From a virus (lineage: Duplodnaviria > Heunggongvirae > Uroviricota > Caudoviricetes), in the IMG/VR virus record IMGVR_UViG_2698536657_000018, positions 1-9,313 of that record: a stretch of 9,313 nt of DNA; one strand, 5' to 3'. How positions within the stretch are numbered: position 1 is the stretch's first letter; every line of letters begins with the position of its first letter. Of this stretch, positions 3,001 to 6,000 are shown piece after piece. The position numbers are program-made.

Positions 3001-6000
3001 TGGGTTATACGGGAATGATGCAAATATTCTCCAAGATTCATTGTTCACCTCATGTTATGTGACCATGAATATTAATAGCATTGTTATTTTTAAAAGTAAA
3101 TAGCATCGCTATTTCAAAGAGATTAATAATCTTATTAGAATTGAAGGTATGAAAAGAAAACCCCTGTCAGAGATCGACCTGCAAGCCGCCCAGAGACTGA
3201 AAGAAATCTGGACGACGAAAAAAACTCAACTTGGGTTAACCCAAGAGCGTGCGGCAGAAATTCTGGGTTTTTCGACACAAGGGGCAGTAAGCCATTATCT
3301 AAATGGTCAGACACCTTTAAATCTAGAGGCTGTTATCAAGTTCGCTGGGTTGCTACAAGTTCCGCCTGAGTCAATTAGACCAGATATGGCAGACTTGTTA
3401 CGAATTGTAAGGATGTACCCCCAAGAACTGCAGCAGGATAATGTTGTCGCTTTACCCGCAGAGATGGAACAATCGGAAAACGAACTTCCGTTTAATATAG
3501 AACCTATAGAGCGAGATTTGATCCAGACGTTCAGGGCTTTCCCAAAAGAAGACAAAGAGAAAATGCTTAAGGAAATGAAGGAGAAAAAAGAATCAATTGA
3601 AGAAACCGTTGCGCGGTGGCTAGAGGCGCAAAAAGGTCGTCGCGCCTAATCTGAGGAGGTTAGAACATGAGTACAGTCCTTTCCCCGATAATTTCAGAAT
3701 TTGAAACAATCGAACAAGAAAACAGCTATAACGAATGGTTACGCACCAAAGTGGCAGCAAGCCTCGCAGACCCCCGTCCTGCAATTCCGCATGACGAAGT
3801 AATGGCTGAAATGGAAAACCTTATTGCGCAAATAGCTTCGACGAACAGGAGTGAGTAATGCTGCCCATTTTATGGCTACCTTCTGCGCGTGATGATTTGC
3901 GTCAGATCGTAGCCTATATTGCCAAGGAAAACCCTCCCGCTGCACGTAGACTAAAAATACGCATTGAAACATCAGTTTTGTCACTTACTGAACACCCTTA
4001 CCTGTATCCACCAAGCGAAAGAGCTCTAGGCCTTCGTGAGATAGTGACCCATCCTAACTACATAATACTTTACCGAGTAACAGCATCTAACATCGAGATC
4101 GTAAATGTAGTTCACTCACGAAGGCAGTATCCAAACAAAAGCTGTTAATCATTCCTACCAACAACCACCTTCGGGTGGTTTTTTTTCTTACCTCCAAAAA
4201 ACAATAGCATTACTATTTACAGAATAAAATAGCAGTGCTATTGTTTATTCATCACCCACCCTCCCCACAGAACGCAGGGCAATACTTCGAGTTACCAGGC
4301 AGTGGTCAGGGGGTAAGTAGCCAGCCCGAGGCGTAAGAACATGACGGCAGGGTTCAACTTTAATAACTATGCAGCAGGTTTTTGTTCCGCTACCCCGGCG
4401 TTAAGGGGAAATGAGGTCAACATGGATACTATCGATCTTGGCAACAGCGAATCTCTGGTATGTGGAGTATTCCCCAACCTGGACGGCACGTTTACCGCGA
4501 TGACGTATACCAAAAGTAAAAAGTTTAAAACCGAAGCTGGCGCGCGTCGCTGGTTAGCCAGAAACACTAACTGATTAGCACCAGTAAAAACAGGTTGCCA
4601 CTGGTTAATTTACCCTGAAAAGTCAGGGTATAACACGAAAGCGCACGGCGAAGCTCTTTCCCTTAGAAGGCTTGTCGTTAGATTTCTTCGAACGTGCGCT
4701 TCCGGTTGTGGCAATCCGCGAAATGGCGCGGCGGTAAGTATGGCTGGGGTTTCCTCCATTGCTCCAGAAAATGCACCGGGTTGTCAGGTTGACCATACGA
4801 TTAAGTGACAGCCCCGCCACAATACCCATGTGTAGTCTTTGGTGGCATCAGTTCTACTCCGTGACTGCTCTGCCACCCTTTTTAAAGTGAATTTTGTGAT
4901 GCGGTGAATGCGGCTAAGCGCACGCGGAACAGTTAAAACCGTAAAGTGGTCGTTTACGGGGCGTAACGGGCATACTTCTGTATTCCGGCGTTAATTGTTA
5001 ACTGGTTAACGTCACCTGGAGGCACCAGGCACCACATCACAAAATTCATTGTTGAGGACGCGATAATGGAAACGTTATTACCAAACGTTAATACGTCTGA
5101 AGGGTGTTTTGATATTGGTGTTCTGCTCAGTAACCGGGAGTTTACTGAAGATGCCATTAAGATGAGAAAATATGAGCCTTATCTTCTCAATGATAATTCC
5201 ATACTCTCCAGAATTGCCCTTCTTAAACTTGGTATTTTCGGAGGGCAGCAGTGACTTCTGCATTTGCACTGGTGATGACGGTTTTTCTTATAACGGGTGA
5301 GCCACAGAATGTGATTACCGGAATTTATGCCAGTAAAGAATCATGCCTCCGTGCAAGAGACGAGCAAAAAATTTCTGGCGAATGCCTCCCGTTAAAAAAA
5401 GTATCGCTGTACCTGAATAACGAAATACCGGCTGGATAACCCGCCAGCCATATTAACGCCATACCAACGGATTAAAAATGCCAGCAATGGCAGGGATTCG
5501 TTCACCCTGAAATCTGTAATGAGGTTAAAACAAAATGAGTAAAGTCTTTATTTGCGCCGCTATTCCTGACGAACTGGCAACAAGGGAAGAAGGCGCTGTG
5601 GCTGTAGCCACAGCCATTGAAGCTGGCGACGAACGCCGTGCTCGAGCAAAATTTCACTGGCAATTCCTGGAACATTATCCGGCTGCTCAGGACTGCGCTT
5701 ATAAATTTATTGTCTGCGAGGATAAACCCGGCATACCCCGCCCTGCCCTCGATTCCTGGGATACCGAATATATGCAGGAAAATCGCTGGGATGAGGAGTC
5801 AGCTTCCTTTGTACCGGTCGAACCTGAATCCGATCCGATGAACGTCAATTTTGACAAGCTGTCCCCTGAAGTACAGAACGCAGTCCTGGTTAAATTCGAC
5901 ACATGCGAAAACATCACCGTTGATATGGTGATTAGCGCACAGGAATTACTACAGGAAGACATGGCAACATTCGGCGGACATATCGTTGAAGCGTTTATGA

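Follow-up and report, generated by a model that had tools for sequence, protein, structure and literature searches.

The window analysed here, the whole stretch of 9,313 nucleotides (nt) at positions 1 to 9,313 of the IMG/VR virus record IMGVR_UViG_2698536657_000018 (Caudoviricetes), corresponds to the immunity region together with the early-left operon of a lambdoid prophage of E. coli, and at 4826-4883 it carries a genuine member of the DicF family of small RNAs (sRNAs) in its canonical operon, between a ydfA-like gene and dicB (Table 1). The gene layout is the same as that of the E. coli STEC1585 RefSeq locus and of the Qin prophage's dicBF operon, minus ydfB and ydfC; neither of these two genes is present in this operon and hence dicF sits in the 3' untranslated region (UTR) of ydfA. 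YdaT-like and Cro-like genes lie on the minus strand ahead of the helix-turn-helix (HTH) repressor gene, and genes for a DUF4224 protein and an integrase follow the gene for the 823-amino-acid (aa) exonuclease, whose N-terminal 640 aa gave no Pfam match. The whole window is mosaic, with matches to E. coli prophages at 89.5-96.7% identity. The scan that listed the candidate promoter gave promoter-like sites in a number no higher than expected from shuffled sequence.

Table 1. Features of the dicBF region, in window coordinates
Feature	Position	Strand	Basis or remark
HTH repressor gene	3149-3649		
PaaA2-type antitoxin and ParE toxin pair	3667-4148	+	between repressor gene and dicBF operon
Strong terminator	4163-4180		upstream of promoter candidate
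Candidate sigma-70-like promoter (TTTACA-17-TATTGT with TG), possible dicBp equivalent	4216-4244	+	consensus scan
ydfA-like DUF1391 gene, first of operon	4422-4574	+	Pfam PF07151, E 1.7e-26; RefSeq annotation of homologous locus L002
Conserved structured precursor leader	4590-4825	+	folds; homology to K-12 processing region (PMC10448788)
DicF-homologous RNA, positional equivalent of the 53-nt K-12 species	4826-4878	+	Rfam RF00039, alignment to K-12
Single-stranded 5' segment CCAUGUGUAGUCUUU	4826-4840	+	affine alignments, consensus precursor fold, RN↓WUU scan
Terminator helix 1, 5' arm (GGUGGCA)	4841-4847	+	Rfam structure, folds, allele alignment
U of compensated U-A pair, in helix 1	4843	+	
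C giving G-C where K-12 has G.U, in helix 1	4846	+	
Helix 2, 5' arm (CAGU)	4849-4852	+	Rfam structure, folds, allele alignment
11-nt loop UCUACUCCGUG	4853-4863	+	invariance of nt 30-37, pairing models, PMC5069750 mutants
U-to-C polymorphism within loop	4854	+	
Anti-Shine-Dalgarno CUCC within loop, predicted to pair with ftsZ and pykA ribosome binding sites	4857-4860	+	
Helix 2, 3' arm (ACUG)	4864-4867	+	Rfam structure, folds, allele alignment
Helix 1, 3' arm (UGCCACC), also in the ftsZ-/manX-complementary stretch	4871-4877	+	Rfam structure, folds, pairing models
A of compensated pair	4875	+	pairing models
U5 run, completes leaky Rho-independent terminator; likely Hfq-binding 3' end	4879-4883	+	sequence; biogenesis PMC9438474
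dicB, cell division inhibitor, 62 aa	5066-5254	+	Pfam PF05358, E 1.4e-36, full length
ydfD-like DUF1482 gene	5251-5439	+	Pfam PF07358
Exonuclease, 823 aa	5535-8006	+	only Pfam match a C-terminal Rv2179c-like 3'-5' exoribonuclease domain, aa 641-813

Scanning the whole window with Rfam 15 at gathering thresholds, DicF (RF00039) was found to be the sole family above its gathering score, with 61.1 bits against 48 (E 8.7e-12) at 4827-4878 on the plus strand and model positions 1-52 of 52 covered. The original prediction of a DicF homolog, which had been made from the sequence alone, is thereby confirmed, and the position in the dicBF operon and the retention of the hairpin and the U-run support it as well. 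For the base-by-base comparison, the annotated K-12 gene (b1574, NC_000913 1649382-1649434; TTTCTGGTGACGTTTGGCGGTATCAGTTTTACTCCGTGACTGCTCTGCCGCCC) was retrieved and aligned with window 4826-4878 (CCATGTGTAGTCTTTGGTGGCATCAGTTCTACTCCGTGACTGCTCTGCCACCC; through the U-run to 4883, CCATGTGTAGTCTTTGGTGGCATCAGTTCTACTCCGTGACTGCTCTGCCACCCTTTTT). Within the 3' part, 37 of the 41 bases are identical and the four substitutions are, in K-12 numbering, C18U, U21C, U29C and G50A. The C-to-T change at 4843 and the G-to-A change at 4875 affect partners in the Rfam consensus structure and convert GGCGG/CCGCC of K-12 into GGTGG/CCACC; the T-to-C change at 4846 (U21C) turns a K-12 G.U pair into G-C, and that at 4854 (U29C) falls in the loop. 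Thus, the paired stem change reported earlier is exact against the annotated gene and preserves the pairing, and the near-identity of the 3' two-thirds stands too, except that U21C and the loop change U29C had been overlooked. On the 5' side the mismatch with K-12 is confined to 4826-4837, as TTT at 4838-4840 is common to both, and the net length difference at this boundary amounts to 14 nt. A 43-aa open reading frame (ORF) with a TTG start was mechanically listed at 4759-4890 (+), and several phage records annotate a hypothetical protein beneath the match; however, the proposal that the region, or the homologous stretch in these records, is protein-coding was rejected and can be given next to no credence, since the 14-nt net indel between the allele types falls inside this ORF and is not a multiple of three, a strong covariance-model match and a terminator structure occupy the same place, and at the K-12 locus an RNA gene has been established by experiment.

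The most conspicuous difference from K-12 thus lies at the 5' boundary, which the original prediction had described as a divergent segment at about 4826-4840; the difference holds for 4826-4837 and the segment appears to be deleted rather than diverged. When the boundary region was subjected to global affine alignment under four scoring schemes, three of the four gave a unique optimum, consisting of a 1-nt insertion and a single 15-nt deletion of K-12 AAT↓TTTCTGGTGACG (nt -3..+12; the arrow marks the cleavage position). Placed in this manner, window TGTGTAGTC stands opposite the K-12 upstream spacer TCTGTTATC with 14/17 identities as compared to 10/18 for the alternative, so that window 4826-4837 aligns best to the K-12 upstream spacer and not to the K-12 mature tail. 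The placement returned by MAFFT, with a 14-nt upstream gap followed by a diverged tail, was discarded, as by eye only two of ten tail positions match and the affine alignments favour the deletion. The divergent 5' region is hence best read as a 15-nt deletion, which would have left the former spacer beside the hairpin. The deleted stretch covers the mapped K-12 RNase E site as well as mature DicF nt 1-12; the K-12 5' tail UUUCUGGUGACGUUU, with the xylR seed at nt 6-15, is not present in the window allele, and CCAUGUGUAGUCUUU stands in its place.

Loss of this stretch bears on how a short RNA could be released. K-12 DicF occurs as two species, one of 190 nt, for which RNase III cleavage within the leader stem generates the 5' end, and one of 53 nt, with a 5' end generated by RNase E (PMC10448788, PMC9438474). 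For the K-12 RNase E site AUCAAU↓UUUCUGG the score on the RN↓WUU motif is 5/5, and a motif scan found no 5/5 site in the window spacer; sites scoring 4/5 lie beside the hairpin, at GUAGU↓CUUUGG and GUAGUC↓UUUGG (4836/4837 and 4837/4838), cleavage at which is predicted to leave a tail of 3-4 nt. In the consensus precursor fold both allele types show a leader that is structured and, between it and the DicF hairpin, a single-stranded spacer of ~31 nt in K-12 vs ~17 nt in the window allele. Within the leader, GAAAGCGCACGGCG (~4637-4650) pairs with CGUGCGCUUCC (~4693-4703) in the minimum free energy (MFE) and consensus folds, and both sequences are conserved with respect to K-12, from which we infer that this stem is homologous to the region in which RNase III forms the 5' end of the 190-nt species in K-12. 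Because the leader stem is conserved, an RNase III-derived long species of ~176-180 nt is plausible for the window allele. The leader itself (4590-4825, +) is a non-coding stretch of ~235 nt without an Rfam family, and it folds strongly (-127.9 kcal/mol, z -2.1, for the 371-nt region). Its internal hairpin has two variants, which are interchangeable and whose recombination does not follow the dicF type.

In contrast to the 5' segment, the hairpin is retained, with the same MFE structure in both alleles (-15.8 kcal/mol in the window vs -15.9 in K-12) and an identical U5 run. Among 22 distinct natural alleles, standard pairs occupy 98.8% of the cells and nothing contradicts the structure; one compensated pair and two switches from G.U to G-C or A-U were observed. 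At pair 18-50, C-G was found in 16 alleles, U-A in four, and U.G and C.A in one each, while pair 21-47 is U.G in 16 and C-G in six; the first three pairs of helix 2 are invariant in 22/22 and pair 27-39 (4852-4864) is U.G in 1/22. A K-12-type copy from E. coli O55:H7 RM12579 (L143, 870-880) has A39G (GTGGCTG), by which U27-A39 becomes U.G and the structure of helix 2 is preserved. Natural intermediates of pair 18-50 were also encountered, U.G in L157, L159 and L165 and C.A in L089, and these could equally be reciprocal recombinants. Folding places the U.G half-step at -15.4 vs -15.8 kcal/mol, hence nearly neutral, and assigns the C.A half-step a penalty of 3.5-4 kcal/mol; with a nearly neutral U.G intermediate that also exists in nature, G50A was not required to rescue folding. 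Furthermore, all U-A rows fall in one lineage and the compensatory change therefore counts as one evolutionary event. The compensated pair had been put forward as an argument for a functional structured RNA, and this argument is only partly upheld: the stem is indeed preserved and the change is consistent with selection on it, but a single-lineage event with a nearly neutral half-step is thin evidence, and a plain terminator would look alike.

One alternative is that the main role of the element now lies inside the operon, as a leaky terminator or attenuator by which the ratio of ydfA to dicB expression is set, and that, the 5' seed and RNase E site being lost, little or no trans-acting sRNA is released. 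Stem conservation and the compensated pair are explained equally well in this manner, and deletion of the K-12 RNase E site and the lowered complementarity to ftsZ and manX would accord with it. The loop of a terminator can vary freely; nevertheless, nt 30-37 (UACUCCGU), where the anti-Shine-Dalgarno seed lies, show no variation across the 22 alleles, every one of the window type included; in addition, pairing with pykA and core pairing with ftsZ are predicted to be kept, and the RNase III leader stem that gives the stable K-12 190-nt species is conserved (PMC10448788). On this balance a mere terminator appears rather improbable, and the invariance of the loop constitutes a stronger argument for a trans-acting RNA than does conservation of the stem.

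Predicted pairing with known targets distinguishes the two alleles further. Data from mutants and compensatory mutants established that ftsZ, pykA and manX pair with the 3' region of DicF and xylR with its 5' end (PMC5069750, PMC5861419). Interactions were modelled on K-12 mRNA leaders by a sliding-window duplex search with opening energies, using cofolding as a check; unconstrained RNAduplex was discarded for its over-extended helices (at least 50 nt), and suboptimal duplex enumeration gave too few candidates. The model recovers the published sites of K-12 DicF. For xylR +10..+19 with DicF nt 6-15, the predicted energy collapses from -13.5 kcal/mol with K-12 DicF to -0.8 with the window allele, in agreement with cofolding (-15.9 to -5.4), and with the deletion of nt 1-12 the xylR seed is gone. 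Pairing of nt 26-43 with the ribosome binding site of pykA is predicted to be almost unchanged (-11.9 vs -11.0 kcal/mol; hybrid-only energies -23.1 and -21.9). At the 3' site of manX (+34..+53 with nt 35-54) a shift from -11.6 to -5.6 kcal/mol is predicted (hybrid-only -33.4 to -29.3), and at ftsZ (-29..-1 with nt 26-53) from -8.1 to -5.6 (hybrid-only -27.9 to -21.3), where G50A alone costs 5.3 kcal/mol and U29C alone 1.3. The core of the ftsZ pairing, CGGAG/CUCCG and AAACU/AGUU, is kept in silico by the window allele with K-12 ftsZ. The suggestion that divergence of the 5' part might alter targeting of ftsZ was thus not supported, as the 5' change is predicted to abolish pairing with xylR, and ftsZ pairing is predicted to be weakened by G50A and U29C; according to the model it is the 'structural' substitution G50A that would be the main cause of the weaker complementarity to both ftsZ and manX. 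Hence, ftsZ, pykA and manX have probably remained targets of the window allele, and xylR has probably not. No phage-encoded target of the new 5' tail was found in the window.

An additional question is whether the segment now beside the hairpin has acquired a function of its own, with CCAUGUGUAGUCUU acting as a replacement seed that pairs with manX +20..+33, in the region of the SgrS site, and shifts control from xylR to stronger regulation of manXYZ. The predicted energy of -12.7 kcal/mol, with eight perfect pairs plus four, is comparable to the -13.5 of the validated K-12 DicF-xylR site, and was equalled by 1/300 tail shuffles on manX and by 3/300 on any of the four targets. The site adjoins the one used by the conserved DicF 3' region, the dicBF operon is known to act on ManXYZ at the RNA and protein level (PMC6832061), and such a seed would fit the inhibition by DicB of ManYZ-dependent phage DNA entry. 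However, this pairing was picked out post hoc among four candidate targets, and cofolding with manX +1..+70 leaves the site locked in a local manX hairpin and unused. For the pairing to occur, the mature RNA would also have to begin at 4826 or further upstream, when the best RNase E-like motifs would direct cleavage at 4836/4837 or 4837/4838 and remove the seed, and natural window-type alleles contain single-nucleotide polymorphisms within it (U6C in L021, C12A in L076). Occupation of both manX sites at once has a pseudoknot-like topology, and a two-site manX clamp by the 5' tail and the 3' site was rejected for this reason and for the masking of the 5' site by the manX hairpin in cofolding. 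The replacement seed is therefore regarded as not robust and rather improbable, and only a small share of the probability goes to the broader idea of a re-targeted DicF, which, having lost the xylR seed and the RNase E site, either gained a manX seed or acts as a tail-less or long-form RNA with a narrower regulon.

Allele surveys show two haplotypes, of which the window type links the 5' block with C18U, U21C, U29C and G50A; U29C is polymorphic within K-12-type alleles as well. The window-type block (~70 nt) occurs behind different leader variants and so recombines as a module. At least 159 complete E. coli genomes contain the 81 bp around the element at 99% identity or higher, and with matches over at least 80% of the 81 bp as the criterion the window type was counted in 207 of 5,426 complete genomes (3.8%), the equivalent K-12-type query giving 3,973 genomes (73%) and 6,702 places. 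In IMG/VR, the conserved core pattern occurs in at least 120 contigs, with ~5% being of the window type among the matches listed, and the exact window-type 5' block is found in 24 contigs; a survey of 50,697 deposited phage genomes did not turn up this block. In the GTDB species representatives, the true dicF core is limited to Escherichia/Shigella records and two probably mis-binned metagenome-assembled genomes (MAGs), the matches L123, L124, L127, L128, L131 and L132 being dismissed as chance since only a 19-mer is shared. Some Shiga toxin-producing E. coli (STEC) strains also carry the window-type allele; carriers include E. coli 7/2 (NZ_CP023820), RM10466 (NZ_CP028381) and STEC1585 (NZ_CP129252). 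An O55:H7 match without length difference that had been suspected of carrying it turned out to be of the K-12 type. A non-exhaustive literature search found no published description of the window-type DicF class.

These counts bear on whether the element is a decaying, non-functional dicF remnant of a degenerate prophage, for which one could invoke the missing prototype 5' tail and processing site and its minority status. Occurrence of the identical 81 bp in at least 159 genomes and in at least 24 IMG/VR contigs with varied flanks argues against decay, as do an intact and compensated stem, an intact dicB, and intact replication, immunity, exonuclease and integrase genes of the prophage; decay is accordingly held to be very improbable. 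In 26 of the 28 window-type loci dicB lies downstream of dicF.

Several observations on annotation and neighbouring sequence accompany these surveys. RefSeq/PGAP has no feature under the dicF matches of either type (E. coli genome hits H61-H100 and H131-H135), so that complete E. coli genomes seem to contain thousands of dicF copies that lack annotation. Sequence of the E. coli type from dicF or the dicB region occurs in a Veillonella parvula MAG (L130) and a Proteobacteria MAG (L133), and also in two phage records, PP818812 (Actinobacillus phage) and MT713136 (Aeromonas phage AP1, 249928-250152), the latter a jumbo phage in which it stands at the extreme end of the record. Its presence in records of unrelated hosts is likely to reflect contaminating DNA, mis-binning or chimeric assembly. 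A regulatory gene of the Rha family is inserted between dicF and dicB in several prophages (L140 1730-2584, E. coli Ecol_316; hits H2-H7), which splits a 1.2-kb query in two and sets dicF and dicB ~1 kb apart. Finally, at 4890-5043 (+), within the conserved dicF-dicB spacer that forms the dicB leader, a match to STnc100 (RF02076) was noted which stays below threshold, with 30.9 bits where the gathering score is 47 (E ~1e-4); it covers positions 21-154 of the 206 in the model.

Taken together, it is likely that 4826-4883 encodes a functional allele of the prophage sRNA DicF, a variant in which the 5' seed and RNase E site are deleted. Such an RNA would be transcribed within a ydfA-dicF-dicB-ydfD polycistron of the early-left operon; its 3' end would arise by leaky intrinsic termination at the hairpin 4841-4877 and U5, and its 5' end by processing. 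It may then act as an Hfq-dependent antisense RNA via the invariant loop and the 3' arm (UACUCCGU...ACUGCUCUGCC), with repression directed at the ribosome binding sites of ftsZ and pykA and at the coding region of manX. The 15-nt deletion would have removed the RNase E cleavage site and mature nt 1-12, and with them the xylR seed, in which case the short form might be cut elsewhere, possibly yielding an almost tail-less RNA of ~41-42 nt, or be replaced by the RNase III species of ~176-180 nt. Several points weigh against this interpretation. Complementarity to ftsZ is predicted to be 6.6 kcal/mol weaker, and the canonical function could thus be reduced; the target energies are thermodynamic predictions on K-12 mRNAs, from which host sequences may differ; placement of the indel is an alignment result for which one of the four schemes gave many tied alternatives; and the covariation support is a single lineage event whose intermediates allele-type recombination could also yield.

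DicF is a model for horizontally acquired sRNAs that plug into core host regulation. Published DicF work used K-12-type alleles; in PMC5069750, for instance, conservation was surveyed only among copies with over 99% identity to K-12. A DicF without one of the two validated seeds and without the mapped RNase E site is found in ~4% of complete E. coli genomes. The window allele is in this respect a natural dicF3-like mutant, which offers a natural test of what the 5' seed contributes to the DicF phenotypes, namely toxicity, a bloated shape of the cells and the growth defect on xylose, and it also probes the flexibility of sRNA biogenesis from operon transcripts. If DicF has indeed been re-targeted or narrowed, the DicF RNAs of E. 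coli prophages would fall into classes that differ in function and in host regulon, and if the manX seed is real, the action of the dicBF operon would be concentrated on the ManXYZ phage-entry and mannose transporter. Otherwise, the window DicF is an expected, ordinary family member with a modified 5' module, and a widespread minority allele.

The closest known system is K-12 DicF of the Qin prophage (b1574, RF00039), with which the window allele shares the position upstream of dicB, the two-helix terminator hairpin followed by U5, the loop seed UACUCCGU and the stretch ACUGCUCUGCC in identical form, and a conserved structured leader with the putative RNase III stem. It differs from K-12 DicF in lacking nt 1-12 and the RNase E site, in carrying C18U/G50A, U21C and U29C, in its location in the 3' UTR of ydfA instead of that of ydfC, and in its predicted loss of xylR pairing and weaker pairing with ftsZ and the 3' site of manX. 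Multiple DicF orthologs are described for enterohaemorrhagic E. coli (EHEC) O157:H7 (Melson and Kendall 2019, as summarized in the reviews PMC7873438, PMC9438474 and PMC6832061), and, as far as these summaries go, the likeness is that of a dicF carried by lambdoid prophages of pathogenic E. coli. Unlike the window allele, the O157-lineage copies inspected (O55:H7 RM12579; PPompW and Stx2 phage records) are of the K-12 type, and O157:H7 genomes occur among the K-12-type matches with none among the 40 spread window-type matches listed. A more general parallel is provided by SdhX and CpxQ, Hfq-dependent sRNAs derived from 3' UTRs or from within operons, whose 5' parts are variable (PMC9438474). 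As in these sRNAs, the DicF variant would be released from an mRNA by termination combined with RNase E or RNase III processing, with the seed conserved and the flanks variable between lineages; unlike in SdhX and CpxQ, the variable module of DicF is a validated second seed in the prototype, and a clean deletion removes the processing site along with it.

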